64,000 nucleotides of DNA from Microthyrium microscopicum (Eukaryota): assembly GCA_010405405.1 (NCBI GenBank), contig MU004237.1, positions 162,191-226,190 on the forward strand, read 5' to 3'. Positions within the stretch are counted from its first letter, which is position 1; the number at the start of each line of letters is the position of its first letter. Made by a program: the position numbers and the translations under genes. Below are positions 2,952 through 41,365 of this stretch, piece by piece. Below the pieces are notes generated by a model. The model saw nothing but the letters and a program-made list of their open reading frames with translations, was not told where the DNA came from and did no database searches.

Positions 2952-4808
2952 GCTGGAATAGGTCAATGAGGTTCTCCGCGCAAAAACCTTGACGGCGATA
3001 TAACCGTCAGTGCGGCAGTCATTCCTGGCTATATTGATATGACACAACAACTCGGAGCGTCATAATTCATCAGAGAGATGATGGGATGAAATCAAACGAC
3101 CGGATTCGCCAAGACTGGAATTTCCTGATGTCGTCAAGAATTGAACATGGGATTCTTACCATGGGTGGTCAGCGATGTGAAGCTGAAGCTGTAGCATGTT
3201 GATAGCTTAGAGGATGCTCTCCAATGAGAGAAACGGCTCGTGTAGTAGGATACGGAGGTTGAGGAGACAGGATCGTGTAGACGACAGGGACAGGTGCCAA
3301 AGCCAATTTCAAACTGGTGTATCTTCAGAGTAGAGACCAACCTTGAGGTAACTTGCTCCGTTTAACTTTCTTCCTGGTAATGCTTTGTTGACTTTACGGA
3401 AGGAACAGTGAAGCTCTAGTACTGTGTACCGGTCAGTATGTTCAATGTTGATCAATTGACGTAGTGTGTCTAGTACTAAACTAATATTCACTTACTCAAT
3501 TGGGAAAGTAATCGGAGATTTGCTCTACCTATGTCACCGTATGAGGATGATGTAAAGAATACGTAGCCACTGGTAGGGGCACGAGAAAGAGACTCAAAGA
3601 GGACACGACGTCAGACCACAAGCAGTACGGAGTACAGTACGAAGAGTTGAGGAGATATAGAATACTACTTGGATCAACACATACTTACCCTCTAAAAGAA
3701 TGCTGGGGTAGGTCTCACTTTATACGGAATCATAAATACCAGTCTTCACGTCAATATTATCAGCCTCTCGCTCACCCCGCCTCTATCTTGATCTGGAATC
3801 CTTCACCCATTCAACGCTGTTCAATCTTCATCCGCACACTCCAATTGCGCCAATGCCAATGACTCTAATGCCATCGCGCCTATGCTGCCGTGCACATGCA
3901 CAAAAACATCACGTGTGAAGCGCCTGATGGCTCTGTTTCTCACTGCATCTGCAGCTCTTTGTTCACCTATTCTCTCCTACGTCAAATCGGATCTTGCCCA
4001 CTCAGAGCTCTCGGAGTGTCTCCGCATACCAAGCACCAGAGTATCCAATCACCAAGAATCCAATTACTCTTCAAAGCACTAGTTAATCAGCTGCCCACAA
4101 TGACTGCCGACTGCTGATCTGGTGTCTTTTGCACTGATAGTATGCTCAGTAGTCTTTGCTCTGTTACTTTACTGTGTGACAAGGCTAGGTCAGCCGTATA
4201 GACCGTATAAGGGAGACTCTTGTGGAGTTACTTGTTATGGTGATTGGCTAATGGCATGCAGTTGCAGAAACGGGGTCCTTCAATTTTTTTTCTTCACGTC
4301 CACCTGCTGTGTCTATCGTGCATTGAACCATGTGTGGTGGCGTGGCAAAATTGACGGCACGAGAAAGACGTGGCCGGTTTCTCTAACTTGGCACTTCATG
4401 GAATATAAGTCCACTCTTCCAGAAAAGAATGCTAAGAAGATCGTATCTTAGTACTCTATTTGAATCGAGCTGCGAATGGCAGCGAAGCAACTTCATCGCC
4501 GCCATCGCGAGAGACTGGAGAATATAGGAGCGCGAGATGAGTCAACTTCAGTCTCAACGCCTCTTATCAGCATCGTGACTTGTTTCACACGGCCCAGAGT
4601 AGGCCAACAGATAACTGCAGCTGCAAAGCACAATTTGTCTCACTCCCGCCCGTGGGACACTAGATTCAAAACCTACTGCCTGAACCGCAGTCGTGTCTAA
4701 CCTCATGTTCATGAATTCAATGCTATCTAAATAAAATCAAGGGTATATGCGCGCGTAACGGGTCTTTGCTAGCCGTCCGAAAAACAAAGAGCATCCATAA
4801 CAAGAGAA

Positions 4809-7800
4809 TTACTTCCAGGATCCAGCCTGGTCTTCTAATAAGCCCAATAGTGCCTTGAATTTCAATGGTTTCGTAAGATAATGATCAGCTCCGCTACTGA
4901 TTGCATCCATTCGTGCTGAAGTGCTCGCTAGGCCTGTGACGGCTACGATCATTGCTCGTTTGCGGTCGCTGGTTTGTTCGTAAGTGCGTATTTCGCGGGT
5001 TGCGGTGTTGCCATCCATAATGGGCATTGAGGTATCTATTTGAGTTAGCATGGTAGGTCAAATGTCGAGTGGAGGTGATAGATGGGAAAACAAGTTGGCT
5101 GTTCCCAACAGCCGTAATGAGAGCAAGCCAATTATTTTGGCCTTCCGTTGGATGAAGCTTACCCATGAGGACAACATCGAATGGCCGAGGGGAGTCTTTG
5201 AACTTGTTGAGTGCGTCTTGGCCGTCAAAGGCCTCCATATGGGGATAGCCTTTGTTGTTCATAAGAGCGATAAGGAGCTGCGTATTTTGTTAGTGATGAT
5301 ACATCTTCATGTTGTGCGGACTTACTCGTCGATTGATTTGGTTATCATCTACGACTAGGACATATGGGCCGTTGGTATTCTCTTTCGTCGCGGGCTCTGT
5401 CTTGGTGGGAGGTACAGTTTGTGCCATGCTTTTTCTTTGAGTTGATGATGATCGACTGGCTGATGGCTGATCTGCTTGACGAAGTACAAGAGTGTTTTGT
5501 CTCTCCAGTCCAGGACGATTGAGTTCAGCTGATTGTTGTCGGTCGAGACAGCTCCCCAGAGTCCTTGCGAGTTTGAAAGGTCCACATCTGTTTGTTATGT
5601 TTAGTGTATGTTGCAAGACAGCTGATATGATGACTTACGGTTGAGCTATGATCTCCACGATGCTAGACTGATCCAACACTCGTACATCATTTCGCAGCGC
5701 CGAAGCTTCAATGGCGTCCAGCGCCAGAAAAACGACTACAGGTGTTTTCCGCTCCGGGATACTCCTCGAACGCACGATAGATAGAGTGTCAAAGCTTGGT
5801 TCAACGCAAATCACAAAGTCTGTCGTTACGTCGTTCAAATTTGCCGCAAGAAAAGCATCAATGGAAAGCCATTCTTTCAACTGCTTCACCAGCAATTGGC
5901 CCAGTCCGGCCACCGCTGACTGGCTGCCGGCGGAATGAACAACCTCTTTGGGCTCCAGTATACACACTCGCTGTCCACGCATGCGCTCCGTGGCCTCAGC
6001 TATAGATTGGCGTTCTGCAGTATCGATTACGGGCTTTCGATTTGATGCGAAGAGTGGCAGCTCTACGCGAGTGTCTGTTCCAAAACTTCGTTTGCTCCGA
6101 ACACTAATCGTTCCTCCTATGGACTCGACGAGCTGCTGCACGATGCTCATCCCTAGACCGGTGCCGGCGTAGAACGAGTTTTCTTGGGAAAAAGGCTTGA
6201 ACATTCCATTGGCGAGAAATTCGTCTGACATGCCAATGCCGGAGTCTGATATTGTTAAAATTAGTCTTTTTTCCTGATATACCGTTTCGGTGCTTGTTGC
6301 CGTGTCCGTACTATCCTCATCATCCTTTGAAGGTAGGGATACATCTTGCAATTCCAGAGATAGGCGGATGTATCCAGAATGTGTGAACTTGACAGAGTTA
6401 CCAAATATATTCATGATGATTCGGCGCCAAGCGCCAGGGGCCATCACAAAATCCGTGTTGGTAAGATGCGGCATGTCGAGAAGAATCCAGACGTTTCTTC
6501 GCTCAGCGTCTTGTTGTGATCCCGTTACAGGACCTCCAGATGGTGGGTAAGATTTTAATAGAAAAGCCATGGGCCGTGAATCTTCCATTTGTGTGGACAT
6601 GGTTCTATAAGATGCTCCAGCGAATACGGCTTCGATAACTTCTTCCATACAAAGGGTAATGTCCACGGTTTCTAATGGCTGTAGATCTCCACTAGGAAGC
6701 TTTTTCCGGCGAAGTTTTACGTGACCCTTCCTACTAGGCTTGAGAGGGTACTTTTTGCGATTACCAAACTTGGAGTTCCTTATATCGTTAATTTTGGAGT
6801 AATCCAGCACGTGTTCAACAGTGTCAAGTAGCGTTCGCCCAGACATTTCTATGGAAGAGAGCATGCCTTGCTGAAACGCGCTGAGAGGTGTTTCTTGTAA
6901 AAAGTGAACTACAATTTGTAAGCATTATACAATTATGGCGAAATGCAATGTGATTGGGAGAACTTAGACTTACCGCCGCCCAAGATTCCATGGAGAGGTG
7001 ACCGAAGCTCGTGTGAGATACTTTGAACAAATGTTGCCTTGGAATTACTTGTCGCAATAGCATCTAATCGCGAAACTTCAGTCATTATGGTGTTGCCGAA
7101 TGCCCTCAGGTACATCATGTCAAAATCAGGGAAAAGAGCGCGTTGTGAATCCGTTGTCCATCCAAGACACATGGCAAACCACCTTCCTCGCTCATAATTC
7201 CAAAGTGGAAGAAGAAATACACTTCGTGACCCCGGAGCAAATGATTGAATGGCTTCGCCTATAGTTTTCTTTCTTCGCCTCCTTGGGGTAGCAGGTGGAG
7301 CTGGGTCGGTTAATGCGGCTACAAGAGTAGAGTCGGAATCTTCGGTGGAAGACAAGTTTCCAGCCCCGTCGAAATTGAATATGCCACCCTTAGGATAGAG
7401 CTCAAGCATCTTTTTGAGGTCTGCCTCTGTCAAAGACCCATCGTTCGGCCTATATATGGGCTCATTCTCAGCTGATGCAGTTCTACCCGCAAAGCTGAGT
7501 AAATCACAGAGTTTGCGAAGGTGACTTCTAGGACTGTTAAACCAGTCTTTGGGATTTTGCTCGGATTTTTGATGTGATGGATGGTTACTGCGAAGTTTTG
7601 GGGTTTCGTTTCCGCTGCCCGAATCAGAGTCGCCCAAGTGTGATGATGCTGAGCTATTCTTGTCTAGAGTCTCTGCCTTCCCAGAGGTAGTGCTACGAAT
7701 TCTGCCCGCTACAGCAGAGGCGTCGAAGATCGCAATTCCATCTAGATCACACGAGTCTCGTATAATGCTCGCCGCTCGTGAGAACATGGACTTTGCGCCT

Positions 7801-8905
7801 GGTGATAACAGCTGTTCCTGAAAAGTCGGATGCTTGCTAGTCTTTTCTTCTGCAACGCTAGCTTCCAAATTCGGTTTCTGAGAGACAGTTGCTGCACTGT
7901 TAGGCGTAGGTTGAGGTAATGACTGCTCAGATAATTTCTTGGTGGGAGGGCCTGAGATGCTTGAACCAACAGGCTCTGTAGCTTTAATTTCATCAACAAA
8001 CGAGGTCAGTCCAGTCATCATCTTCTCGCCACGTAAAGTTTCCTGCTTATGGGAATTAGATACTAGGTAATTCATGGTAGTATCCGCCAATTCATGAAGC
8101 GTTTGGTATTCCCCGTGGCTAAGACCAGGACGAGGAGTGTTCGAGTAGACACACAGAGCACCGATTTTGGCTCCATCGGGACTGAGTAGAGGTACTCCAG
8201 CGTAGAATCTGTTTCGAGGTCCTTCATGAACAAACCACTCTCTTTTGTATCTCTCATCTGGGACAAGTTAGTAAACGAGTAGAATATTGAATACAACACG
8301 ATATGAAACCCATCGAGGGTTGAAGTGTTGACGGAAGGACTACGAAATTGGGGTTGTATTACCTTTGAGAAGATCATGGATAACAACATTGCCGGAGGTT
8401 GTTTCTTGATGTATATTGGGAATGGGGTTGATGTCGGGACTGTCCAACAATAATGTGCAAAGTCCTCTATTGCGTGGAATTATTGCGTTGCCTAGCCACA
8501 GACTTTCAACGCCATCGGGGCTAGGAGTACTTCCCAGGGAAAGTCGTGGAGTCGCTTCTGCCAGAATACATTGGCGATGCCCGTCTATCAGGCTTATCAA
8601 AGCTCGAGAGACTCCAAGTTTGATAGCAGCCAATTGAGCCAACGAGGTAAGAACAGAGTCAGTTGCCGCTTTCGGAATGTGATCTCGAGGTGGAAGTGGA
8701 ACGTCTAAGGAACTTAAGGCTTCGGTAAGGTCCACTCCAAGTAGGTTCGGGTCATTGTATCTAGGCGAAAGTCAGACCGAAGTTGAGAAACAAGTGATAA
8801 GTCAGCCTACTACCTATGAACATTTTGCTGCCGTTTGTTTTCCGAAACAGCTTTTTTGGCAGGTTTGTTGGTCGCAGGGACGGCTTCGGAAGCGCTGGAT
8901 GCCAT
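4809..8905 (-). CDS. Hybrid histidine kinase (N-terminal GAF, HisKA, HATPase_c, receiver), multi-exon
   Basis: GAF-type LTSLAQLAAIKLGVSRALISL; H-box SISHELRSPLHGILG; N-box NIFGNSVKFT; G1 DSGIGMS; F-box FKPFSQ; G2 GTGLGMSIV; receiver VLVVDDNQIN...DVVLM/D.SMPIMDG...YLTKP. ATG at 8905 (MASSASEA). Confidence 0.93.
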
Positions 8906-9997
8906 ACTGAGCACGCGGCCACGCTGGAAGTCAAATCGGCTCAGGCCAAGTACAGAATAAGTTTACGACACGAGAGGAGCTGAAGGGACAAGCATCGCAC
9001 ACACGCAATTAGGCAATGCAACAGGAGAGTGTATCCGAGGGGTTTATCGGATAGGGAACGTGATCCGAGAATGTTCGGGAACTGTAGTTGGTAGAGGGGA
9101 AGGAACGAGGTTTTTCGTGGTGAAGAGTCGCTATGCCATGAATATAAGATATTCCGGGAAGGAGTTGGTTAAGATTGCAAAGCCCTTATACATTGAGTCC
9201 AGTAGTAAGCAGGTAGAGAGACGGAAGCATCTGGACCACGGTGTCGCCGTCTGGAACATTGAATTGTTGATGAGAGACAGAAGTTGGTAGTAATTGCTTG
9301 CCGCTAGAGACTTAGTAAAGCCTATTAGACTATTAGCGGTTTAGTGCTGCCATTGCCGACCACCTGGCACCAACCTCGCCAATTGCCCGAATCCCGAGCT
9401 TAAACTTTGCCAGGATCTCTCGATCTCTCAGTCCATACTCTATCCATTTCTGTCCACAGTCCCATTTCGTTTCAATATTCATGTGTACGATGGATGCTCT
9501 AGCACTCACTACTTCCAGACTTCAGACATTGTATCGAGGCAGAGTGGCAAGAGACTAGAGGCAAGAGACAAGCCGAGATAGATCAAAAGGTAGGCTGTAA
9601 ATACTGTTTCTTTTGTGTGTTTTTATGGTTAGAAATTAGAATTTTGCCAATTGTGAGTCTAGAAGATTACCTAGCGTCGGACCCTGCAGGGTACAATGAC
9701 GATCTCCCGGAGTTTATTCCGATGTCGACCTGACTCGCGCAAGAACACTATCCACGTGTATTTTGACATTTTCATCTCTTTACCAAAAGTAACAATATAC
9801 TAATGGCCATCAGATTTGATGAGATTTCGGCAATGTCAGAGCCTCAAGTACTAAACAAGAACCGCGTCAACCATGATCAATTGACAGAGTACGCCCTTGT
9901 CCTATGATGGCCATGTCAGTATCATTGCTTCGCCGCCCTTTGAGTTTTATAACAGATCATACTATCATTATATATCAATCTAAGAATACAACAAAAC

Positions 9998-13038: not shown

Positions 13039-14584
<1,546 letters not shown>

Positions 14585-17066: not shown

Positions 17067-17207
17067 CTCACTCACTCACTCACTCACTCACTCACTCACT
17101 CANNNNNNNNNNTCACTCACTCACTCACTCACTCACTCACTCACTCACTCACTCACTCACTCACTCACTCACTCACTCACTCACTCACTCACTCACTCAC
17201 TCACTCA
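17067..17207 (+). repeat. (CTCA)n microsatellite containing a 10-N assembly gap (17103-17112)
   Basis: Directly visible; the true length is unknown because of the gap. Confidence 0.97.
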
Positions 17208-18645: not shown

Positions 18646-20179
18646 GCGTGGCGTGGTGACACGTAAAATGAGGGTGGTTCGTTTGTCATTGCAAACTTTT
18701 GAGGTATCTGAACCAGTACGCCGACTGGTGGTGCAAATATATAATGGTGTATATCTAAGTGCTAAGCTATGTAAACTGGTCTAGATAATCTAATTTTGAA
18801 GTAAGGTCAGTTGCGAAGCATGGTGGTTTGTTTGGTGGATGTTGATGTGGCAGGCTCCGACTTTGCACGAGTGACTTGACGGTAGCATCGAGAGCTTTCG
18901 TGGTGTGTATGTTGCGGAGCGTAGATTCCGACCAGAGAGAGTTTTGACAAGCATGGTGCTTGGAGTTCGTGGTGAGCGCGAGTTCTCAGATGTACTCGGG
19001 CCAGGATCTTGTCTTGTGTTTGAAATGTAGCTCCGTGATTGTACATGTCCGAAGGGTGGAAGCAGAACAAGATGTAAAGAGCTACGAGCCATTGTCGTGA
19101 AGTCCGCAGAACCTTGAAAGGTGAAACAGCTATCGATCGCCCGCGTGATATTTCGTTGCAGATGAGTTTGAACAAGCGAGAAGGCTGGAAAGCAATGACG
19201 TAAGACAACTGGAAAGCTGATGGCTCCAAAGGGTTCGCGGGATGGTATTATTCACTGCGGTCCAGTAATGCATATGCTTAGATCGCATCGTGGCCAAGGA
19301 AGATCAGTTGTGAGGTTATCGGTGGGTGAAATCCACGTTGAGGTGTATCGGATTCGCTCCATGGGATCTTTTATATCAAATCGGCAAGTGGTGCCGTTCG
19401 GTTGAGGGTTTCGACAAAGTTTGATCGTTCGACAGGAACGTGGCCTCCAAAGCTGCTTGAAGATGAAGAGGAATTCATGGCTGGAGCTATCAGGAGGACT
19501 GAATGGCTGAGGAAATTGAGAGACGATGCCGTACTTTCGAAGGCTAGATGTGGCAGCCAGCTAGTCTGGGTGGATAGGATTTGCATAGAAACGTGATCGT
19601 GCATAGACGAAGAAAATTCGAGGGAGTTGAGAGTGGAATTGTTGAGCAGATTCGAATTGCTCCAGCATGTTGCATTGGGAGTTTCCTGATGAACAATGCC
19701 CTAATGGCGATGAATGGAAGCTGTTTGTGACTGTGGCCCTGTTAGTTGATTCGGACAATAGAGCAAATTGGAGGAGACTGTACCTATAGATTCTGACTGT
19801 GAGGATAGCATGTCTGGCTGTCGGAAAGTGACTACAGACGAATGGTTCAAGGTCTTTGAGTCCAGTAAGGGCTGCAGAAGTGATGGAGACACGCAATGTA
19901 GAAGCAAAAGAGATGGTAACAGTGGTTTTCTTGATGAGAGTATGGTTTAGAAGTGATGGAAGAGAACAGGAGAGAATGGCAGAGGGGAATGAGGCTTGCT
20001 GATCAGGCTGGAAGTCGCATGTCAAATCGTAAAGACGTCCTTGCCCTTCACCTAGGTTGCAGCTTCACATTTCAACACTACCCAGCGTTGCTCCGCGACT
20101 TCTGACACTATATTAGAGTGTTCCTACTTAGCCATCACCGAGATCTTCAAGCTGTCATGTGTAATCATCATAACATACC

Positions 20180-20331
20180 TATTACAAGAATATGAGAAAT
20201 AAAGCGTGGTTGATTACTACGGGAGTCTAAGGGCCTAATATAGTTTTTAGGACACGCTAATTAGGGGATTATGTTATCCCTAATTAGGTCCTATGATTAT
20301 TTAATTTTTTAGTATATTCTTTATTATAATA
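20180..20331 (-). repeat. Left (3') LTR, 152 bp
   Basis: Aligns without gaps to 29630-29781, and all differences are transitions. Its ends TA...TA are RIP products of TG...CA. Confidence 0.95.
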
Positions 20332-20340
20332 TTCTTCCTT
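20332..20340 (-). other. Polypurine tract remnant (AAGGAAGAA on the minus strand)
   Basis: A purine run immediately upstream of the 3' LTR in element orientation. Confidence 0.6.
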
Positions 20341-20974
20341 ACTAGCGTGAACTCTTCTAAGATTATAAATCTTGTAGCTATAGCTTAATAAATGAGTAAA
20401 ATAAAAAGAATATTGTAATAACTAATAAGGAACCTCTACTTAGGAACTAGGTTTATTACCCTAATTATGCTAAATAGTAACCTCTAAGATATTATTCCCT
20501 AAGAACTCTTCCTAAGATCTTAGTTAAACTATTATAAATAGTACTTAGGCGTTTATAGTTCCTTAATCCTTTTAGGAAGGTTTATCTATATAGGAGCTAT
20601 TAGTAGTAATATATTAAGGAATCGTAAGGGGTTTATATAGGTGTACTAAGGCTGCTTAATCTAGCAAGGAATATATATAACCTACGTATTGAGGCCTTAA
20701 AGGGTAAAGTTTATAAGAAGTAACGTGTAGGTAGTAATAAAGAACTAGGTAGTAATTGCTAGTCTAAGTAAATATAGGGATAGGAGCCTAATCTTATGTC
20801 TATAAAGCTTTATGATTTGTTATCTTCTCTTCTTCTTCTTTATTATACTTTTATAATATTTTTAAGCTAGTAGAAGTAGATTCCTTCTTGTACTTTTAAT
20901 ATTATTAAACATAAGTAACTTTATATATTTTCCTTGCTTAAAACTTACTATTTATACTTCCTAAGGCTCTTAAA

Positions 20975-22590
20975 ATGGCTCTTCTAGGTACTTTAAAGAA
21001 GGGTGGCTCTTAGAAGTCTAATAAGGAAAACTCTTCTTGTTTAGGTACTTATTAGAAGATTATTAACGCTCTAAAGGAGGATAAGTAGGAGTAGCCCTTA
21101 CCTTATGTAACTTATTTACGTAAGAAGGTTAAGGCTAAGGTTTTGTCTTCTTTGCTAAGTCGTAAGGAAACTCCTAGGGAATTAGTTTATAACTTGGTTA
21201 AGCGTTATTCTTATTTTATAAGTTTCTAGCTAATTAACTAAATCCTAGAGGCTAATAAGGAGAAGGAAGATCTCTTTAGTAATGCTTCTAGTAACGTCTT
21301 TCGTCCTTATTATAAGTTTTTAGTATCTCTTATAATGCTAAGAATGTCTTGTTAAATAATTTCTATTAATGATACTTCTACTTAGGGATTAGTACGTATA
21401 ATAAGAAGTCTAGACTTGTTAGAAAGTGATTATAAGGCTAAGTATAAAACTCCTATGCTTTTTAACTTATTATAGGTACGTAATTTCTATGCTAAGACTC
21501 TTATAATAATTTTAACTTGTAAGTATAAGGCTGCTAAAAAGGAGTTAATAAACTTAGTAAAGCACTAGGAGTTTATAGAGTAAGAGGTAAAAGGTTATAA
21601 AGATTAACTAGCCTTTACTAATAAGAGCTTAGAAGATACTTATGAGTATATTAAAACTATTAAAGCTACGCGTAATAAACGTAAGTAGGAGTTAAAGTAA
21701 GTAAGACTTTAGAAGTATAAACGTAAGGTAAGCTTAATAGTAATTTTAGAAAAGCTATTTGCTATGCGTAGTCGTGTAAATATAGTAAGACTAACTACTA
21801 AGAAGAGTATAAATTATTAAGAGAAGTAGGTTAAGTTCCTAGACTCTAACTAGTATTTTGCCTTTAAGGACGTTAAACTCTTAAGGGAGAAAGTAACTTA
21901 GGAATTACTCTTCTGGCTCTTAAAATATTACTAGAAGGATAATAGTATTCTAGTAAAGGTTACTAATATCTTAGTGCTTATACCTTAGTGAGAGATTTAT
22001 TAGTATTTAAGTACTTTGCTCTTAATTAGGAATATTCTATTATTATCTTCTTGTTTAAAGACTTTTATAATATATATAACTATAAGAGTAAAGTAAGAAA
22101 AGGCTTATGTGCGTTATTAGGACTTGTTATGAGTCTATGCTTATAATAGGTACGTTATTAGTATGTATAAGGAGAATAAGGCTTTTTTCTTAGATGGTAC
22201 CTATACTAATTATATGTTTAATAGTAAACCTTAAACTTGTTTATTCTATAAGGACTACGTTTTGCTATAGAATTAGAAGAAAGGTCTAAATCCTATCGTT
22301 GTTTAGTTATTTGCTTCTCTTAGTATTTCTAAGTTACTAATTAATAAGGAGTACTTTAGAATGGCTAAAATTGCTATAGGATTAGTAGCCTAAGTAAAGC
22401 TCTTAGAGGATAAGAAGAAGAAGTAGGTATAGGCCTTAAAGAGATAGGACTCTATAGGATTGTAGTAGGATATATAGTAGTAGTTCTTTAATATTTTTAT
22501 GTTTCTTAGTCTTATTTTATTAGTTTATTAAAGGGTAGACTTTAGTGATGGTCTTAGAGATTACTAGGGAGATCTAAAGATAACTTATTA
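20975..22590 (+). pseudogene. RIP-degraded antisense accessory gene of the retrotransposon (coiled-coil plus six-Cys DUF3716-like domain); 3' end approximate
   Basis: AAAATGG start at 20975, with one frame (+2) maintained for about 530 codons of protein-like sequence. The de-RIPed motif C-x2-C-x11-C-x16-C-x2-C-x8-C with G-A-C-A-N-C...C-S-F lies at 22106-22246. Confidence 0.65.
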
Positions 22591-22769
22591 TATTTAAATA
22601 TCCTTAGTGATAGTTTTAAAAATTACTAGGGAGATCTAAGGGTTTAGCTTATTTATTATAGCTTATAATAGTTTACTTAAATTAATAATAAAATAAAAAT
22701 GATTTTTTATAAATAGTTTCTTAAATAAATATAATTAGGAAAGGTTATAAAAGAGATAATAAAAGGTTA

Positions 22770-25700
22770 ATTTTTCTTTTCTTTCTTATAGATACCTTAC
22801 TTATATCTATACGTAGGATAATCTCTTATCTAGGAGTAGCTTTTTACTATCTTTATCTTAATCCTAAATATTATAAGCTAGTACTAGGATGTATAGAACT
22901 ACTAGGCGTTATAGTTAGCCTAAATATATTAGTATCTTATAAGAATTCTTTAGTTATGTCTATCTCTTATAGTAGACTAGGTTTAGGGTAATCTATAGGA
23001 AGAACTTCTACTTTTATAGTATTTAGTAATAAAGGGTTAATACCCTAATAGTTCTCTCTAGGATTAGATACTTATTTATATAGATTTATTACCTTTAGTA
23101 TAGGCGTGTAAGTAATTAGGGTAGTAATCTTATTATGGCTCCTTAGCCTTAATAATTTATCTCTCTGCTCTTATTGTTCTAGTGATATAAAGATTAATTC
23201 TTGTTCTACTATAGCTAGGAGAATTTCCTTCCTTACTAAGCTTTAATTTAGGGAGGTAGGAATATTATTATTCTTTTCTCTTACTAGATCTTATAGCACT
23301 ATAGAATATTCTACCTTCTATATAATTTGCTTTATTTGCTTTAGATTGCCTTGCGCTAAAGCTAGAATTAGGCTAGAAGGAATATATTTTAACGTTATAG
23401 GAGTCTCTAAGTTACTACTTAGGTTATGGATAGTTGCTATAGAGTGTTTCTTTTCTTATCTATAAATGTCTACTTTAGCTTTTTAAACTTTTCTTATGAG
23501 GTTAAGAGGAATAGTAGGTAGACTTAGGTAATATCTCTTAGTATTAGACTTCTTAATATTAATTAACTCTACTAAAAGGTTTCTTAATCTATTAAGCTAG
23601 TCTTTCTTAGTTATAGTAGATATATCTATCTTGCTTCTATGCTCTTTGTTTAGAACGCCTTTAAGGTCGTTTTTACTTAGTTGCTTATACTTAGGATATG
23701 GCTAGTTTTAGTAATAATATTTATTTTTTTTTTGTGTATATGCCTATATAAGGTAATTTCTATAGATAAGGTTTCTAAGTACTCTTTTGTTAAGTATCTT
23801 AAGAGCATATATTCCTAAGGGGTAGGCCTTTAAGACTTTATAAGGGCTAAACTACGCTGCCTAGAACTTAGTTTTATTTAAGTTTTTAAGGAGCATATAA
23901 GAACTTATAGGGAACTTAATAATGGAATTCTCTTTTAAAATTATGTTGCTATTAATAAGGTTTAAGGCTATGGCTTGTTTTAATAAGGTGTTATAATAGA
24001 CTTGCCTAGTAGTTCTAACCTTCTTTAGGTAATCTTTAGTAATTGCGTAGATAGGAGGTATAGTACTAGTTAATTTAGTTTATTTATTTTTTTTTATTTA
24101 GCCTATTTTAAAGTCTTTAGGATCTCTTCTATAGATAAGGAAGAAAGAAGATATTCCTAACGTAGTATAAGCTTGTATCCTAGTAGTATAAACTACCTAA
24201 TCTAGGTATAGATCCTAGCTAGCTATAAGTTTTCCTTTTAGGAACTTAGTTAGGAATATGCTTAGTAGGCTATTAAATCTCTTAATCTTTTTATTAGACT
24301 AGGGGTTATATAGGGCTATTAAGTAGTGCTTAGTCTTTATCTATTATAATAAGGACGAAATTACGTTTAAGATAAATTAAGGTCTATTATCTAAGGTTAA
24401 TGATTAAGGAGGGCTATATTTTAAAATAATTTTCTTATAGATAAATTCTATAACTATAAGAGTAGTAGTATTTAGTATTGCTTTTATAATAGGCTATTCT
24501 ATAGTATAGTTAATTATATAGATAATATACTAGTTCCTAAGGAGACTCTATAGAAGTTTACTAATTAGGTTGATTCCTTAAGCCTTAAATAGCTATAGGT
24601 TTTGTACTTAATAGTAGGACTTATGCTTAGGCCTACTTTAATTTATCTATTAAACTTAATATATAGGATAGAACTAGGTAAATTCTTAAAAGTTGTTTTC
24701 TATTCCTAGCTACTAATCTTCTAGTTTAAGGATACTAGTAAGGCTTATATATAATAGGTGCCTATATTAATTATGTACTTTCTTAATAAGGTCTTAGTAG
24801 TAGAGGGGGTAAATATAGGGTGAATTAGTAAGTATCTTAGCTTTGGTAAAATCTTTCTTTAAGAATAGATGCTTGTATTTTTTCCTAATATCTTTATTAA
24901 GGTTAATTTAAAAACGATTAAGAACGCTTTTTTAGAGCTTCTTTTATACGTTAGTAAGAATAGTATAATTTTTCTTTTTTAACGCTTTCTATAAGCTTTA
25001 TATATAGAGGGCTTCTTATTCTTTTTGCTTTTATAAGAGTTCTAATAGGGTAGCTTGCGCCTTAGAAGATAAGTTATTATTACTATCTTTAGGCTTTATT
25101 TCCTAAATAGTATTAATCTATTCTTCTTAAAAGTTTAGGTAGTGACTAAGAGTATTAGGAACTACTGCTTAGGAACCCTTATAATACGTGAAGATAAGAT
25201 TAAATTCTTGGAACTCTTTAATTTATTAAGTAATATGTTAAGTGTTATTCTTAATTGTATTTATATACTATAAGCTATTATAATTTATAATTACTTTAGT
25301 AGTCTTCCTTAGGAAGTAGTGTTAGTATTTTTTAATTATATTCTTAACTATAAGAAGCTCTTTTTCGTATACTGAATAATTAAGTTTAGCTTTGCTTAGC
25401 TTATGGCTATTAAAAGTAACTAGGTGTTATTTACCTTAGTTATCTTCTTGTGTTAGCTTGTAACTAATTGTATAATTTAAAGTATTTATTTAGAGCTTTA
25501 TAAGCTTTTATAAGTTATATATTGCTAAGATAGGTAATAAGGTTAATAGGGTCTTAATTCTATTAAAGGCTATAGTATATTAATAAGTTTAAGTAATAGG
25601 GTAGTGCTTCTTTTTTTTAATATTTAGGTTAGCTTTCTTTAGGAGGTTAAAGATAAGGGTAGTAATCTTAGTAAAGTTCTTAATATACTACTAATAGTAT

Positions 25701-28700
25701 AAGGTAAGACTAAGGAATTAATGTACTTTATGTATATTCTTAGGTATAGGCTAGGACTTAATTAAGGTAGTCTTTTCGTGTAAGGGTTAGATTTGCTAAC
25801 CTTCTACTTTATAGCTATAGAATTTAATCTTCTTAACCTTAAAGATGTATTTATTAGGATGAGCGTAGAGCTTATTGTCTTAGAGGATCTTTAGAACTTA
25901 GGTAATATGCTTATAATATTCCTTTATAGTATCTAAGTAAATAATAATATTGTCTAGGTAAATAACTATATAGGTTGATAGGAAGGGCTAGAGAAGTATA
26001 TTTATTATACGTTAGAAGAATAATGGTATATTTATTAATTTAAAAGGCATAATAAGGAACTTATACTTTCTAGACTTAGTGTTAAAGGCTATTTTCTTAA
26101 TATCTTTTTCTACTATGTAGACTTGCTAATAGCTTGATAAGAGGTTAAGCTTAGAGAAGAATCTTGCTCTACTAATAGTGTTAAGATACTTATTAATTTG
26201 TAGTAAGGGATAAGTGTTCTTACGCGTAACTATGTTAAGTAGATAGTAGTTAATATATATTCTTTATTTTCCTCCTAGCTTTAGTATAAATAGGATAGAG
26301 AAACTTTAAGGACTTCTTAAGACTTTAATAAGTTCTTTAGTAAGTAGTTCTTAAATTTGCTTTTCTTACTCTTTTAGTTATAGGCTAGATGTTTGATAAT
26401 AAGCCTAGTTATGAGGAGGGGCGTCTTTTATAAGGATTTCGTAATTAAACTTAGAGTGTAGGAGGAGTTTAGGAAGGGTATAATGAAAGGATCTATAGTG
26501 ATTATTTAAAAGTTTCTATATGCCTTTATCTTCTAGAGCAAGTTTGTTAATATTAAGGTTATTAATTATTAAGAGGATGTTAGGCTATTTCTATATTCTA
26601 TGAATTAGCTAAAGAACGCCCTTAACTTTGTCCCCTACTCTTTTTACCTTATTTTAAAGTACTTAGAAGATTGTATAGAGAGAGCTAGCTATAAACTGCT
26701 CTATTTGTTTTAGGTAGCTTCCCTTATTTTGAAGAGGCTCTGCCTAGCGTCTTATAGCAAGCTTGTAAGTGTATAGGCTCCCTAAGCGTTGCTCTATAAG
26801 CTTAATTTGTTTTATTATCTAATTAATCTATGGATTATATAACTAGAACTATGAGAGTCTAAAAATAACGTTAAGATTAGGGATGTTTAGGATATAAGCC
26901 TTAAAGTGGCTATAAAAGGTCTTAATATAATAAGGTAAGTAAATCTTAAAGGAAGTTATAACTATGTAGCTATTTGTAAGAGTAACTTCTTTCTTTAGGA
27001 TAGGTATTATAGGAGCTTTGAGTTTCTTAACGATCTTTTAACTAATATAAATAGAGTTGGCTTCTAAGTCTAGGAGAGCTATAGTCTTAATAGAATAATT
27101 TTTATAATATAAGTAAATAAGTAGATGTAAGAGAGTATCACTATGTCTACTTGTATAGTTAAGGAAAGCTTATTAATTATTATATAGATAAGTAGGGTAT
27201 TCTAGTTTTAAGCTAGAAGATTTTTGTTTATCTTTTAGTGATAGTAGTTTTTTGAACCTTATTATCACTAGTTAGGCTTTTTATAATTTATGGCGTAGTG
27301 GCTAAGTTTACTATAATTCTAGTACTTAAGTTTAGAGTTATTTATAAGAGCTTTCCTGCCTTTAGAGTCCTTTTTATGAGAGGGCTATAACTTCTTGTTG
27401 GAGTTAAATTTCTTAGAGCGTTAAGTATTATGTTATCCTCTAGGATAGTAACTATAGTTATTTATAGTATTAAGCTGCCCTAAATTTTTGTTGTCTAACT
27501 TAAGCTTATTATTAGTATAGCTTTTATTATTAACTTCCTTAAGATATTCCTTAGAACTAGTGTTTAGAGTAGGCTTTTTGTTTTCCTTAAAACTAGAAGA
27601 GATTTTATTAAGCTACCTTAGCCTATAAGCGTTATAAGTATTGCGCGCGTTTTTGTAGGAGTCTATATTATATTTAATAATCTCTTATTTAAAGGCTAAA
27701 ATGTTAACTATAGGGTTAAGAATAGTACTATGTTTATGCTTAGCCTTAAGGGTAACTTGTTCTTTAAGGCTTCCTTAGATTTAGATACCTATTTTGTAAT
27801 TAGTAGGCATAGGATTTATTTAAGTCTATAGGATATAAAGATAATAGATAAATTTCTTAGTGGATGAAACCTATGATGTATAATCTTACTAGATACTAAC
27901 TTTAAGTATGTCTTTTTTGATACTAAACATAGGTTAAAAGTAGGTAAAGAAGTAAGATAAACTTTTAAGTATCTTAAACTCCTTTATAGCCTATTATTAG
28001 GCTAAGTTAGCCTATAGGAGACATTGCTTAATAGAGAGATATTCTCTAACCTTAGTAATTTTCTATTACTTAGGTAGGGTAGAATCTAATAGGAGAATAT
28101 CTTTACTAGCCTTAAAGGTATAAAGGAGGCTCTTAGTCTAGGTATTATACTTGCTTAGTTTCTTAGAGAACAAACTATTAAGAGGCATCTTAAACTTAGT
28201 TAAATGTTGTCTTTGTTCCTAAGGAATATTCCTTGTTATCTTAATAAGTTTTTAGGGACTAAAAGTTTAGAAGAGTAATTTAATAGTCTTATCTAACTTC
28301 TTGCTTAGCTTTCTTATAAGGTTTAGGTAAGTAATACTTATTTATAAAGTTTCTTAGGTTAAAGCCTATGTCTAGGCATAAGCCTTAATTTTATTTATTT
28401 AGTAATCTTAGGTATGTAGGGCAAACTTACTTACGTTAAGGTGAGAGGTTAATTTAGTAATATGATTTATTATCTTTTACTACTAAGTATATTAGACGTC
28501 TTCTATAGGTTTAGGGCTATGATCTTATTTACTTTGCTTATTAGTGGTAGGGTAAAATAATGCTCCCTAGGGAGGAATAGGCCTATTTATAGACTGCTAA
28601 TTTCTATTATTATTACGTTAGAAAGTTTAGTTATGAGCCTAAGGAACGTAGTTAGGTCCTTTAGGAGTATAGTTCTAAGCCTAGGAGGGAGTTTGTAGTT

Positions 28701-28920
28701 TAGTAGGAGGATAGTTAATAGTTTAGGGATTAACTTAATACGTATTAGTAGAATAGTTTAGGGCTTAGGGCCCTAATTGCTAAACGTTAGCAACTTAAGT
28801 TATAAGGTTAGGACTAGGATTTAGTATACTAGGAAGGTTGTTTAGTAATATAGGAGTAAGTTACTCGTCCTAAGGACCTAGGTTAGTAACTTAAGCTTAG
28901 TATTATGTCTGTTAGGTATT
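22770..28920 (-). pseudogene. RIP-degraded gag-pol; boundaries approximate
   Basis: Zinc knuckle Y*NYSKLSHYAINY (from CWNCGKLGHYAMDC) at about 27285-27325. Protease ALLDLEA at about 27060-27080. RT YPLLQI, LIMPFKL and VIYLDNIIIY (about 25940-25970). RNase H NYSVYEKELL at about 25355-25385. Integrase YNP*SNKKIKRFN at about 24275-24312 and *FSPYKV (from WFGPY) at about 23835-23855. Confidence 0.88.
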
Positions 28921-29619
28921 TTATCCTATAGCTTAGGTTATAATGTTATTATGCTAGTTATTTATTTTGGTAAAGAGGGGTAATGATTTTAATAAAGGGT
29001 ATAATCTTAGTAAGGTAGGGGAAGAGTCTTAAAGTCTAGAAGTTTTTATACTAAAGTTAGTTAGATAGAATCTAGAGTTAGGAGATTATTTTAAGGTAGA
29101 TTTTTATACTTTCTTAGTATAGATAAGATCTTAATCTAATTTCTTAAGATGACCTAAGGCTAAGAGTCTACGTTGTTACTTATTAGCTTTAATCTATGTA
29201 GTAAAGTTTCTATAACGTTATCCTAAGGGATTTTCTAAGGAGAAGTTCTTATGTTTTGTCTAATGGCTGCATGATTGACGTAGCAAAGGTTAATAGGGAT
29301 AAGGAGGGTATTATTATAAGAGAGATAATTCTTATAATATATTTAATGATCCTTAAAGTAGTAGTTTAAATTAAAGATAATTTAAGACATTTTTAGGATA
29401 TATTATAGTAGGGAATATTATTGTGTGTAAATCCTAAGAATCGTTTCTTAATATATAGTTGCTAGGTATTAGGCTATAATAAGGCTAGCTAATTAGGGGA
29501 TGATATTCTTAGAGTATATCCTGCTAGATATTAATCCTAAGTAATTATTAATAATAAGGTGAATCTAGGGATTCCTATAAGAGGTCTATCATCTAGAGGT
29601 CTTAATTAAATTAAATTAT

Positions 29620-29629
29620 TGCTACTAGA
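29620..29629 (-). other. Putative primer-binding site (minus strand TC-TAGTAGCA, RIP-derived from TGGTAGC, initiator-tRNA-Met type)
   Basis: It lies 2 nt inside the 5' LTR and needs one G-to-A reversion. Confidence 0.45.
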
Positions 29630-29781
29630 TGTTGTAAGAATATAAGAAATAAAGCGTGGTTAATTACTATGGGAGTCTAAGGGCCTAATATAGTTTTTAG
29701 GACACGCTAATTAGGGGATTATGTTATCCCTAATTAGGTCCTACGATTATCTAATCCCTTGGCATGTTCTTTATCATAACA
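29630..29781 (-). repeat. Right (5') LTR, 152 bp
   Basis: Canonical TGTT...AACA termini are intact and are followed by the TSD ATACC. Confidence 0.95.
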
Positions 29782-30409
29782 ATACCCTTAACGAAAGTGG
29801 AAGCTAGAGTAGGGAAGGTAGCCGAGTTTCGAAAAATCCATTGAACTTGACTATATCTTCTTGATCACACCAAATAGTGCAAAGTAACCTCATTTGACCT
29901 CTTTCTCTTGACCATAGTTGCACTCGCCAGAGCCAAGGATATCTAGTAGCCAGTTTCGGGCTTCAGGATCAGTACCTAAACCGTACGGGAGAAGCTCCCA
30001 TCAGATGCGGTGTCTGCCAGAGCAATCGCCGGAGAAACGCGCCTCTAATTCCCATAGATTTTATGAGGTGCCCTGTGAAACTCTGAGAACGATACATTCG
30101 AAATCCTGCTCCTTTTGAATTTCGCAACAGACAGTATAGTCGAAAATCGTGTATTTCCCCAGCTTAGCAATATGTAAAACGTAAGAAAGACAAAGGACTG
30201 CGACACATTCTGCAAGTGGTCGAATAAGCGTTAAGCATAGCATGACTCTCAGATGACCACACTGGATAGCAATGTCGGTTTCATGGGAACATATCATATA
30301 CATATCTATTTATATTTTCTTGCCTTTGCTAAGAGCCTTGGGTGAACTAAGCCCATGCGTGCCGCGTCTAACTCAATAAGCGGTCCTTATTTCAAAAGTC
30401 CTAGAGGAC

Positions 30410-31645
30410 TTATTTGATCTTTCCAGCCTTTTTGAAAATTTCCGCAGGTCCATAACAGTAGCTCGTGAAGCCCTCGATCGCACTGATATCGTACATCGAG
30501 GTCTTAGTTCGCTTGATTCTTTCCACGACCTCATTACAATGCCTCTCCCATTGGAGCAACGCGGTTTTGAAGAAATCCGTCCCATTTGGGCGAAGTTCAA
30601 CTCCATGTTTCCAACTTCCGTAGAGAAGCTCGAGCTCCAATCTTGTTTTTGAGCATGCGTCAGAAATCGCAATATGTTTGCAGTGGACGTCAATTTTAGC
30701 TTCCATTTCAAAAACCTCCAGAAGCCCAATGATGTTTGATATGGGTTGTAGAATCTCTTCTTCGCGGCTGCGATAAGCAGGAGGCTCGGGGGAGGGGTCG
30801 ATCTCAGGCTGATTGTTTAAAGGTGAGCTGCTATCTATTTGGCTTGGATCCATGTTCGATGGGTCACTGTGTAGCGGAGGCAATTTTCCAAGTGCTTCAG
30901 TTGCCTCTTGAGCGAGATCTGGATGCCATATAGCTGCAGCTTCCCGAATTTCTTGAAGTCCTCTTCTGTATGATGAATCGTTGTTGGTGCTATCCTTGCT
31001 CTTGGAATGCTCCAAAAACACAGCCGGACTATTCTTTGCATATCTACTGACGAAGTCCCGAGCCATCAACGACCTCAGGTATGGTCCAACAGGAGTGAGT
31101 TTTGCCAGCTTTACATTAAAGCTGTAGAACATACTGACAAAGAATGGCAATTTCTTATGGTCGCAACAAGTCCAGAAAACTCGCTTCTTATTGTCCTTGA
31201 CTTTTTGCTCTGTCATTTCGGTTTTCCAGTATCCATACGCCTCATCACTGATCAGCATGCCCGTTCTCGCTATTTGCATCTGTTGTTCGGCGGTATGTTC
31301 ATCAATGGTGGAAATTCCATGTTTCATGAGTTCTGGATTGGTGAGCAGTCGCTTCAATTCCACGAGAGTCTCGGATATGGCCTTTTGTGTCTTTGAAACT
31401 TCAGCCGTGAGGCGGGAATCCAGGATTTTCGATCCCTCAAAGCTGATGAGGCCTGTTCGAATACCCCAGTGGCGGAAGATACACCGTTCTAGTTGGAGCT
31501 TTGCTTGTAAAGATTTGCAGTCCGTGCTGCAGTTCGCATTTGGTATTGAATATGCCCAGTTCTCTAGACAACAGTCAAAGAGGGCAGTGGTGCTATTAGA
31601 GCTTGGAGAAAAAGCGCCACCGAAGATCGATTTGATGGAAGCCAT
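30410..31645 (-). CDS. HeLo (HET-S N-terminal, prion-inhibition/propagation) domain protein with an unknown C-terminal domain; 411 aa, intronless
   Basis: LFDCCLENWAY...DCKSLQAKLQLERCIFRHWG, KKRVFWTCCDHKKL..FV..FN.KL..LTP and LQEIREAAAIWHPDLAQEA parallel the HET-s/HET-S HeLo blocks as recalled (LFNNCVDCFEY...RLSRWG; KKTAWALYDGKSL; LKDAAGGIDAAMSDAA). Confidence 0.8.
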   Translation of the reverse strand: MASIKSIFGGAFSPSSNSTTALFDCCLENWAYSIPNANCSTDCKSLQAKLQLERCIFRHWGIRTGLISFEGSKILDSRLTAEVSKTQKAISETLVELKRLLTNPELMKHGISTIDEHTAEQQMQIARTGMLISDEAYGYWKTEMTEQKVKDNKKRVFWTCCDHKKLPFFVSMFYSFNVKLAKLTPVGPYLRSLMARDFVSRYAKNSPAVFLEHSKSKDSTNNDSSYRRGLQEIREAAAIWHPDLAQEATEALGKLPPLHSDPSNMDPSQIDSSSPLNNQPEIDPSPEPPAYRSREEEILQPISNIIGLLEVFEMEAKIDVHCKHIAISDACSKTRLELELLYGSWKHGVELRPNGTDFFKTALLQWERHCNEVVERIKRTKTSMYDISAIEGFTSYCYGPAEIFKKAGKIK

Positions 31646-32868
31646 CGTATATTGTCGTATCAGAGGGTTCTGGACTTCTGGGAGTTGAGGAGGGATGTGT
31701 GGAAATAGTAGTCCAACAGCTAGCTATAACTCTGCCTTTAATAGCTCTGAAGTTATGGCGATTGGGGCCGAATTGACGATAACCAGAGAATGTTGATATC
31801 TCAACCATGGGTAGATAGCAGTTACGGGACCATAGAGCTTTGTGAAACCTGCTGTGGCGTTGCATAGGTCATTTACTCGGTACTCTAGCGATGGAGTCTT
31901 CTCAATTTGCTTTGAAACTCGAATGCTATTGGTAGATGCTCAGCCTAGCGTATCCAATATTTTGCCGATACAGAAGCAGCAAATTTTCAGATCACATATG
32001 TTACTTAGTATATCATTCTGCTTGGATTTCTAACTATAACTTTCTACCAAAATCGTTTATCACTCGATCTTGGTGGGAGATGTATCAGGCTATTCGTGAA
32101 GTATGCCATCGAATATCGGGGCTACCTCCAAACAAACCACACATCACTGACATCTTATATAATAACTATATCTCCTCTCTGCTTTGAAAAGAGCCTGAGC
32201 AATGTATGAATAATCATTGTACGAAAAGTTGAAAATAAAGCTATCAAAGGAATTAGCCCAGCTGGGCGACATGATATGTCAGGCGCTCCCATCAAACAAT
32301 ACAAGGTCTCTGCCATTGCGCTCTTTCGAAGAATATACTTTGACCTCCAAAAGTATTCGATGCAAAGTCAAACATTTTAGGCATTGGAGATAAAGAACCT
32401 GAAGATTTGCCACTAATTCTGTGCCACGCTTGAGGCCTTCAGAGTCACTACAGGTACATGACTAAACCTTCTAAACTACGGCAATTGCCACTACTCCCAC
32501 TCAATACCCGGTCGCATTATTCGTTAAATTAAACTCTACAAATGATCGTGGAGACAGACCAGACCTCCCAGCAGCAAAAACCCAGGAAACTAGGGTAAAC
32601 TAGTCTCTATACATATACTCTAGATTGATATCGACAGACAGATTAATTACCACCACCCTTAAGATACCCTATCACATTTCGCAACTCAAGCCCTTTCCAC
32701 AACAAACGCCGTACTCCGTCCCCAGTATAGCACTGATAGCACAGTACTTTTTAGCTCCCCCATACCTTGAACTAAAAAGTACAATGCAGACAAACGTTTG
32801 TACATAGATTTATACACACTCTCCTTTAGTCACTCCATTTTCGGTTCGATACAGTTCGATCAATCAAC

Positions 32869-40605: not shown

Positions 40606-41365
40606 GGCTGAGGATGTTCCCAAGTATGCTTGCTGGCACAGGCAGAACTCAAGGCTTTGAAAATATGATGATAGCTATCAGAGGCTGATCGGTAGCGGCA
40701 CTTATATGAGACTTGTCCGGGGTTAGAACGCCCAGAACTAGGACGCCTCCAACGTGGTGGTATAGGATCAACCATATGGTGTTGGAAGGAGGATTTATAG
40801 AACGTAGGATAACTTGGATCCTGATTCCTACAAATGCTTGACGGCGATCTCAGGGCTTGTGCGTCGACTTCTCCAGCCATACGCAATGATTTCTCTATAT
40901 TGTTGATCCTACCAATCTACACTTTTGTGAGCAGGTGGCTAAGCATTTAGCCAAGTCCTTAACCGTTGGACAAAATTCGATGGGAACACGCCACTTATTT
41001 TGTCAACCGGTTGGTCCTTTTTATCATATCATCAAGTGGCAAAGTTAAATGTTTCCACGAGCATCGAGAGAAACTCTTTGAGTCAAGCATTCGCAGTAGC
41101 TGAATATTCTCTCGCTATTCAATGACCATAACTCCTACGCCTCGTCTCATATTGCATTGGGAGTCCGCGGCGCACCCTCCAATCATTTCTTGTGGCCTTG
41201 CATATGCAACGCTGCAGGTTGTCATTAACACAGTTAGACAAACGTCACTGCAAGATTTCTTGTGATTTCCAACTAGTAAACTCATCTGAAGAGGTGACAA
41301 GGCCAAAATCACCAATCTCTTGTGTTCTGTAGATGCAATATTATACAGCTTGAAAAGCTCACAGA

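Follow-up and report, generated by a model that had tools for sequence, protein, structure and literature searches.

The window analysed here is a 64,000-nucleotide stretch of contig MU004237.1 of Microthyrium microscopicum (assembly GCA_010405405.1), filamentous ascomycete DNA whose ordinary genes include HET and HeLo domain genes, a tubulin gene and genes for S-adenosylhomocysteine hydrolase and a histidine kinase. Within DNA of 45-55% G+C it holds one 9.6-kb block at 26-32% G+C, and this block is a single, structurally complete Ty3/gypsy long terminal repeat (LTR) retrotransposon, lying on the minus strand at 20180-29781 (9602 bp) and killed by repeat-induced point mutation (RIP). Between its pol gene and its 3' LTR, the opposite strand carries the remnant of an additional gene with a block of six cysteine positions. 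Comparison with related elements makes it very probable that the retrotransposon belongs to a clade of fungal gypsy elements carrying an antisense gene of the DUF3716 family (Pfam PF12511) between pol and the 3' LTR, which RIP has killed in this copy. Three independent lines of evidence support the antisense gene: the RIP-immune codons, contigs from sister copies, and the DUF3716 gene of the relatives.

The element is bounded by the target-site duplication ATACC, with identical five bases at 20175-20179 and 29782-29786, and by two 152-bp LTRs on the minus strand, the 3' LTR at 20180-20331 and the 5' LTR at 29630-29781, which form a direct repeat matching at 92% over 144 nucleotides. A polypurine tract, read from the sequence, adjoins the 3' LTR at 20332-20347, and since this purine-rich run lies on the minus strand and abuts the left LTR, the element is oriented along that strand. 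Pol, from protease to integrase with a long C-terminal extension, occupies 23170-27226 on the minus strand (its lower end being uncertain, 22900-23400), with reverse transcriptase (RT)-RNase H at about 26452-25202 and the integrase core at about 24439-24302. When this frame is read through its stops Pfam finds RNase H (4.6e-18) and then rve, the integrase core (0.19); RVT_1 is unmatched in the RIPped copy. In the 5.8-billion collection pol is matched best by Ty3/gypsy polyproteins (E 2.4e-57), and pairwise alignment with the gypsy polyprotein P0004 spans RT to integrase at E 1e-60. The gag region and leader, assigned from their position, would take up 27300-29600 on the minus strand in frames other than that of pol; the codon test described below chooses minus-strand frames across 27532-29331, and the gag region gives no Pfam match. 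At the other end, the pol-frame codon signal persists down to about 23170, about 1.1 kb beyond the integrase core, and about 3 kb separates that core from the 3' LTR.

It was in this space that the first-pass annotation, made from the sequence alone, had placed a hidden plus-strand gene, quoting an AAAATGG with its ATG at 20975, TAT GTG CGT TAT at 22106, the codons GAT GGT ACC TAT ACT AAT TAT ATG TTT AAT AGT AAA CCT TAA ACT TGT TTA TTC of a cysteine block, which fall at 22193-22246, and a TATAAAG at 20801, all of which are present where it put them. The maximal extent of the gene remnant is 20975-22702 on the plus strand, from the first ATG after an in-frame TGA at 20813 to an in-frame TGA at 22700. 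The true start and stop are not fixable, because RIP makes TAA and TAG ambiguous, and further in-frame ATGs lie at 21335, 21344, 21455 and 21764. From 20975 to 22600 the frame holds 42 stops, 40 of them TAA or TAG and two TGA, a density of 7.7 per 100 codons against 8.8-13.3 in the other frames. The annotation had also held that about 530 codons of the frame can be read as protein; the frame is indeed there, but its openness carries no evidence, because forgiving TAA and TAG leaves every one of the six frames open over hundreds to thousands of codons.

The evidence for strand and frame comes from codon statistics. Base composition by codon position is strongly periodic in 20975-22600 (chi-squared 52, p 1.7e-9), and the phase of this 3-base periodicity does not shift between about 20632 and 22400. 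A codon model reduced to purines and pyrimidines is insensitive to RIP but was set aside: it finds the phase and cannot tell the strand; the claimed frame is the exact antisense-aligned mirror of the pol frame (coordinate modulo 3 equal to 2, as against 1). A codon model trained on pol was too noisy. The RIP-immune codon test scores only codons that neither contain nor touch CA, TG or TA; its log-odds were trained on 12 host open reading frames (ORFs) of the window. In 20975-22600 the claimed frame alone is positive, at +12.9 bits; the remaining frames range from -8.7 to -54.4, with -18.0 for the mirror frame of pol, and 12.9 bits was attained in any frame by only 1 of 1000 dinucleotide shuffles. 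The same test names the true pol frame in all five of the intervals scored within 23032-27531, and in leave-one-out trials with simulated RIP it was right in both strand and frame in 100 of 120 cases, a minus-strand gene being miscalled as the mirrored plus frame in 10 of 120. The hidden antisense gene is thereby found on the strand, in the frame and at the position that the annotation had assigned to it. Sliding intervals of the test are positive from 21233 to about 22730, and the maximal-scoring segment, the strongest coding stretch of the antisense frame, runs from 21413 to 22739 on the plus strand with 16.8 bits. A weak minus-strand codon signal of 6.3 bits at 20787-21252 (coordinate modulo 3 equal to 0), which is not significant, overlaps the start of the ORF, where codon support is lacking.

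The usual thresholds for RIP are a TpA/ApT above 0.89 and a (CpA+TpG)/(ApC+GpT) below 1.03; the element passes both, with 1.76 against 0.69 in the flank for the former index and 0.34 against 1.27 for the latter. The process was strand-asymmetric: the plus strand of the element keeps 27 CpA as against 269 TpG in 9.6 kb, and a single CpA is left on the plus strand of 20975-22600. The G+C skew is +0.2 to +0.3 all along the element. The differences between the two LTRs, of which the left (3') copy is the more mutated and more heavily RIPped, are C>T/G>A changes at CpA/TpG and also at CpG, CpT and CpC. In the antisense gene, the TpG-to-TpA half of RIP has turned five of the six cluster Cys codons into Tyr codons, and about 40 Gln and Trp codons have become stops.

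The cysteine cluster itself lies at 22106-22249 on the plus strand. Five of its Cys positions are now TAT, each one G>A from TGT, and one TGT is kept at 22238; the Tyr codons are at 22106, 22115, 22202 and 22211, with either 22142 or 22151 as the candidate for the third Cys. The resulting pattern is Y-x-x-Y ... Y-V ... Y-T-N-Y, eight residues, C-L-F, and the density of Tyr and Cys peaks at 10 in 50 for residues 381-430, the mean being about 4. A test of the annotation's own motif, made post hoc, was passed by 3 of 2000 shuffles for the core and by 0 of 2000 for the full pattern. A profile of 28 columns, from nine residues before CxNC to fifteen after it, was built from the relatives L009, P0024, L046 and L059 only, with the window excluded, and was run over every codon position in six frames, each TpA being allowed its CpA or TpG ancestor and the best residue being taken. 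With all four sequences and CpA/TpG reversal, it peaks on the plus strand in the claimed frame at 22175 (22175-22258), with a score of 52.2 against a null maximum of 31.5 +/- 4.3 that reaches this value in 0 of 1000 shuffles, and this is the top profile match across the whole 64-kb window. The place is the same, 22175, when no reversal is allowed (score 13.0, null maximum -0.7 +/- 3.5, 4/1000), when any T or A is reversible (62.0, 47.3 +/- 3.9, 3/1000), when only L046 and L059 are used (62.5, 43.4 +/- 4.7, 1/1000) and when only L009 and P0024 are used (51.0, 43.2 +/- 5.2, 75/1000). Of the six-Cys DUF3716-like cluster that had been proposed, the C-terminal block is significant against the relatives' profile, whereas the first half, CxxC...C, is a weaker case, a gapped profile of that half placing the claimed position (22097) at rank 10 of 18,996 positions.

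The relatives come from metagenome contigs, which were scanned with an alignment of the window pol and three database polyproteins to give 79 loci; the antisense ORFs downstream of pol were listed and run through Pfam. L009, the best pol relative (E 3e-153), is an intact element, with the last 60 nucleotides of its LTR at 1-60 and again at 9070-9129. Its gag spans 882-2402, and its pol, which encodes protease, RT, RNase H and integrase, spans 2381-6703. PF12511 is matched by the antisense ORF at 7617-8132 (E 1e-15), whose 57.8 bits lie above the gathering score of 22. The start codon of the gene is an ATG at 8075; beyond the domain, a 49-nucleotide GTATGT...TAG intron connects it to another antisense ORF with much Ser, Pro and Asp, giving about 362 residues in total; 238 nucleotides separate its end from the pol stop. 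The distance from the last domain Cys to the pol stop is about 1.06 kb in L009, the counterparts in the window being 22238 and a pol end at 22900-23400, and the layout is the same in both, the gene ending tail-to-tail with pol as had been described. The only database relatives of the L009 product are two clusters of unnamed proteins of 153-154 residues, both PF12511, and a search for longer DUF3716 relatives of this protein gave none. Upstream of the L009 DUF3716 gene, at 8345-8170 on the minus strand, lies a short ORF that begins MNMKLL..., hydrophobic and signal-like at its start and rich in Gly at its tail; a GTAAGC...AG intron-like stretch follows it, and no in-frame joining to the DUF3716 exon was achieved. 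L009 pol has about 450 residues after its integrase core, which match neither Pfam nor a chromodomain.

In the degraded L046 and L059, PF12511 is the sole Pfam match of the antisense read-through downstream of pol (E 0.0045, 17.3 bits and E 0.074, 13.4 bits, respectively, both below the gathering score), and L046 keeps all six Cys. The top match of the RIP-aware profile in L036 is likewise antisense, at 14023, about 1.75 kb past the end of the pol match, a result reached by 8 of 500 shuffles. The gene of the relatives is thus a DUF3716 gene, and the family pattern taken from its Pfam-validated members is CxxC, about 10 residues, C[IV], 10 to 25 residues, CxNC, 8 residues and CS[LF], in agreement with the hallmark G-x-C-x-N-C ... 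C-S-[FL] that the annotation had given. The second half of the domain reads CGNCYWNGQGSLCSL in L009, CANCHWNGQGSLCSL in P0024, CTNCH*DAQNIQCSF in L046, YTNCT*GKIAINYSL in L036, which is RIPped, and YTNYMFNSKP*TCLF in the window. A hidden Markov model of the domain made from three sequences was discarded as too narrow, having missed even L046. L046, L059 and L063 are at 26-34% G+C with no long ORFs in their AT-rich parts, and their indices are not RIP-like (TpA/ApT about 0.75, (CA+TG)/(AC+GT) about 1.4-1.65), which suggests another kind of mutational process or another preference among dinucleotides.

A FastTree phylogeny of the RT-RNase H region (82 rows) places the window element, L036, L009, L008, L013, L046, L059 and L063 in one clade with local support 100, and the clade includes the un-RIPped L008, L009 and L013. 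The contigs of L008, L013 and L063 end before the expected place of the gene. The block is present in all five of the members with enough sequence, by Pfam in L009, L046 and L059 (the last two below threshold) and by the RIP-aware profile in L036 and the window. Outside the clade, the Cys pattern occurs antisense downstream of pol in 0 of the 21 loci with at least 3 kb beyond the pol match, and none of 69 antisense ORFs with 90 residues or more, taken from 19 of these loci, matches DUF3716; the IMG/VR loci L001-L007 also fall outside the clade, and in the three longest no separate antisense ORF follows pol. At the DNA level the window resembles its relatives in pol alone, mostly in the RT region, at about 57%, and they are for this reason different families of one clade, in which the gene has kept its place despite the divergence.

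Closer copies are represented by contigs of public sequencing runs, which over 19900-24600 include many pieces diverged by 10-16% across 20395-23854; these come from the source sample and also from a second organism's run. The segment is therefore present in sister copies, where its absence had been named in advance as an observation that would refute the proposal, and this, with the antisense block at the same place in L009, L046, L059 and L036, supports a gene that belongs to the retrotransposon family and speaks against a one-off capture. Of the 40 best-supported sister-contig differences, none falls within 22106-22246. A run guessed to be RNA covers only flank and LTR pieces and has no bearing on expression; some of its LTR pieces are joined to other flanks (loose ends at 20178 and 20305), and these are solo LTRs or further insertions of the family elsewhere in that organism.

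A number of observations count against an antisense DUF3716 gene in the window. In the frame itself, the TGA codons at 21989 and 22130 require non-CpA RIP or some other mutation, although non-CpA RIP does occur, as the element's own LTR differences indicate. The first 85-145 or so codons, from 20975 to about 21230-21410, are without codon support, and L009 has only about 50 residues ahead of its domain and no counterpart of the long N-terminal part; for these two reasons the gene may not include that part or the possible coiled coil in it. The E/K-rich heptad region that had been described at about 21520-21730 survives as a charged stretch: the frame's best 42-residue interval, at 21539-21664 on the plus strand, is K/E-rich with a charged fraction of 0.33-0.40 and is at most a possible coiled coil, its heptad periodicity being weak and reached by 43 of 2000 segment shuffles, uncorrected for scanning. 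Under a broader simulated RIP, the codon test was right for plus-strand genes in only 67 of 120 cases. The RIPped rows of the tree are compositionally skewed, and the pairing of the window with L036 is a meeting of long branches. The profile draws on only two independent lineages, and L009 and P0024 alone give the marginal 75/1000. For the N-terminal half of the domain, an ungapped profile is not significant, 521 of 1000 shuffles reaching the element's top score, and a gapped one is matched by 80 of 500, the top score being located elsewhere in either case. Lastly, a contig joint runs from 20842 to 22650 with AAGG between and skips 20843-22649 (1807 bases), which is almost exactly the gene; it occurs in two runs of the source sample, its shorter side is 21 letters, under the caution line of 30, and it could reflect either a copy with a deletion or a misalignment within AT-rich DNA.

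To these are added the homology searches that started from the window. The read-through translation has no credible Pfam match, either in the claimed frame or in the six frames of 20332-23700, at E up to 5; the direct PF12511 match that might have been hoped for thus failed to appear, the translation falling short of the gathering score of 22 bits with no match at all because RIP replaced five Cys. A phmmer search of the claimed frame against 1.84 billion representative proteins gave 0 matches. Given that the equally RIPped pol, which served as the control, is readily found in databases, the accessory protein is too damaged, too fast-evolving or too rare in databases to be found in this way. 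BLASTP of the window against the antisense products of the relatives was not significant, the correctly registered high-scoring segment pair having E 8. Neither metagenome nor viral contigs yielded a match when scanned with the read-through protein or with pol read through its stops, and when the window sequence beyond pol was aligned, as purine/pyrimidine DNA, with that of L036, L046, L059 and L009, the score was no better than that of shuffles. AlphaFold2 on P0023 with 3 sequences reached a predicted local distance difference test score (pLDDT) of 32, and no relative was found in the PDB (E 0.86).

Given the abundance of TAT, TAA and TAG that RIP leaves behind, it is conceivable that free reversion has conjured both the ORF and the Cys motif out of a plus strand that is noncoding. 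Such a chance pattern would sit well with six frames that are all open when TAA and TAG are forgiven, with a stop density in the claimed frame not far from that of the others, with the lack of any Pfam or HMMER match of the window translation and with a domain whose N-terminal half is not significant alone. However, this is highly improbable and already strongly disfavoured: the codon test, made on RIP-immune codons, is matched by one shuffle in a thousand, the profile made only from relatives peaks at the claimed codons in a way that no shuffle equals (4/1000 when nothing is reversed), and four relatives have the same gene in the same place and orientation. It is just as hard to credit a sense-strand origin of the signal, in which pol would run on in its own frame for 3 kb as a C-terminal extension or an env-like ORF and the plus frame would be its mirror. 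The exact antisense alignment of the two frames, which the purine/pyrimidine model cannot separate, the roughly 450 residues of L009 pol beyond the integrase core and a strand classifier that errs in 8-25% of simulations all lend themselves to this explanation. Yet in 20975-22600 the plus frame is at +12.9 bits and the aligned minus frame at -18.0, the minus frame wins in every one of the five pol intervals, its signal ends near 23170, and the DUF3716 block lies on the plus strand and is likewise antisense to pol in L009, L046, L059 and L036.

A further rival is a one-off or recent capture: a fragment of a host DUF3716 gene, or a nested foreign element, would have entered one lineage and would play no part in the life cycle of the retrotransposon. 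The joint from 20842 to 22650 suggests a copy without exactly this segment, the N-terminal region lacks a counterpart in L009, and DUF3716 genes are common in fungal hosts and, according to PMC8232023, occur also in a class II element, as REP9-1 and REP9-2 of the IS3EU transposon of Zymoseptoria tritici. Nevertheless, this is unlikely, given that the segment is found in sister copies and in a second organism, that clade members share its place and orientation although their RT DNA has no more than about 57% identity, that the L009 gene is intact with a spliceable intron, and that the shorter side of the joint is below the caution line. An ancient capture by the ancestor of the clade is compatible with the preferred reading of a clade-wide antisense DUF3716 gene, and concerns the origin of that gene and not its present role.

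The TATAAAG at 20801 and the pyrimidine tract at 20816-20844 are both present upstream of the antisense ATG as had been reported, and together (20801-20844, plus strand) form a candidate promoter or 5' leader. The tract is the only run with at least 23 pyrimidines in 25 on the element's plus strand; TATAAA is common in the element (19 on the plus strand, 34 on the minus), and TATAAAG occurs six times. A pyrimidine tract upstream of the ATG is the usual layout of filamentous-fungus promoters. L009 has pyrimidine-rich tracts at 8439-8356, 280-360 nucleotides upstream of its antisense ATG, and the tracts before both genes would fit such a promoter, in themselves showing nothing. It is suggested that the gene had its own promoter near the CT-rich tract and was transcribed convergently with gag-pol. 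The six-Cys DUF3716 domain presumably binds zinc, and the product may have been a nuclear DNA-binding accessory factor that served the element through transcriptional control, the choice of integration site or evasion of silencing; the N-terminal charged region, if part of the protein, may have allowed it to dimerise. This role is proposed on account of the Cys cluster, of analogy with other antisense accessory genes, and of a DUF3716 protein of Neurospora crassa, NCU05718, which a passage of PMC10776026 cites as binding telomeric sequence, Fusarium graminearum PSC58 being another DUF3716 protein named there.

These considerations raise the further, rather doubtful possibility that DUF3716 is at root a transposon-borne DNA-binding module, borne as a spliced antisense gene by this gypsy clade and also carried by IS3EU, from which many host genes, the telomere-repeat binder among them, were domesticated, and that the protein binds specific DNA, for instance the element's own LTR or favoured target sites, and so directs integration or keeps silencing at bay. 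If true, this would be the first antisense gene of an LTR retrotransposon with an assignable biochemical role, and part of the large fungal repertoire of DUF3716 genes would possibly be transposon-derived. The idea of a zinc-cluster DNA binder serving the element is testable, and the intact L009 is available for such tests. In terms of method, a gene erased by RIP is recoverable by combining RIP-immune codon statistics with RIP-aware profiles from un-RIPped relatives.

In the surroundings of the insertion, a HeLo-domain gene lies at 30413-31723 on the minus strand, about 630 bp from the 5' LTR of the element, and a HET-domain gene at 41354-43135 on the plus strand, 11 kb further on; both neighbours are of the incompatibility or cell-death type. 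Ten N at 17103-17112, presumably an assembly gap, interrupt otherwise ordinary sequence.

For decades, LTR retrotransposons of plants and of Botrytis have been known to carry extra genes that are antisense to gag-pol. A viral case is HBZ of human T-lymphotropic virus 1, an accessory protein with a leucine zipper that is encoded antisense near the 3' LTR. The likeness to the present gene is in the antisense position near the 3' LTR and, less firmly, in a zipper that may be set beside the proposed charged heptad region, for which the signal here is weak; there is no sequence relation, and only the layout is comparable. Antisense accessory ORFs of retroviruses in general receive a mention in PMC7264820. 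Plant elements with an additional ORF that lies antisense between pol and the 3' LTR include maize Grande (gene23), rice RIRE2, Silene Retand and Phaseolus PvRetro13 (PMC7264820; PMC11963269), and their products are said to lack clear similarity to known proteins, apart from an SMC-like domain in PvRetro13 (PMC7264820). The window element has this layout, termed aORF-3R, with coding on the strand opposite gag-pol at 20975/21413-22702, between a pol end at about 22900-23400 and the LTR at 20331. It resembles the plant cases in the antisense orientation, in the position between pol and the 3' LTR and in a suspected nuclear or regulatory role, and it may resemble them also in the presence of the gene in most copies of the family. 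It differs from them in that they belong to plant lineages, whereas the gene of the window clade would belong to a defined Pfam family, DUF3716.

Closer in host are the Boty-like gypsy elements, whose antisense gene brtn is reportedly the subject of Zhao et al. 2011, Virology 417:248. As passages of PMC7264820, PMC8365987, PMC4227169 and PMC5987419 have it, these elements of Botrytis cinerea and Sclerotinia sclerotiorum are fungal gypsy elements with one extra gene on the opposite strand between pol and the 3' LTR, the same arrangement as in the window. No protein named BRTN was among the matches of the window frame or of the L009 product; if BRTN is a DUF3716 protein, the present finding is simply a further member. 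Full-text searching gave no link of DUF3716 or PF12511 to LTR retrotransposons, the domain maps of the Botrytis elements (supplements of PMC8365987) being outside that coverage. Antisense genes in gypsy elements are thus already known, and it is the DUF3716 identity common to a clade that was not found in print. In the relevant text of PMC7264820, no antisense gene of an LTR retrotransposon is given a recognised protein family or function; here the family would be DUF3716. The Pfam-confirmed pattern of the window's relatives, CxxC ... C ... CxNC ... CS, is the one shared by REP9, PSC58 and NCU05718 (PMC8232023; PMC10776026), and in REP9 the domain is again carried by a mobile element. There, however, the carrier is a DNA transposon with its DUF3716 genes beside a DDE integrase-like gene, whereas here it is an LTR retrotransposon that would carry the domain as a gene antisense to its own pol.

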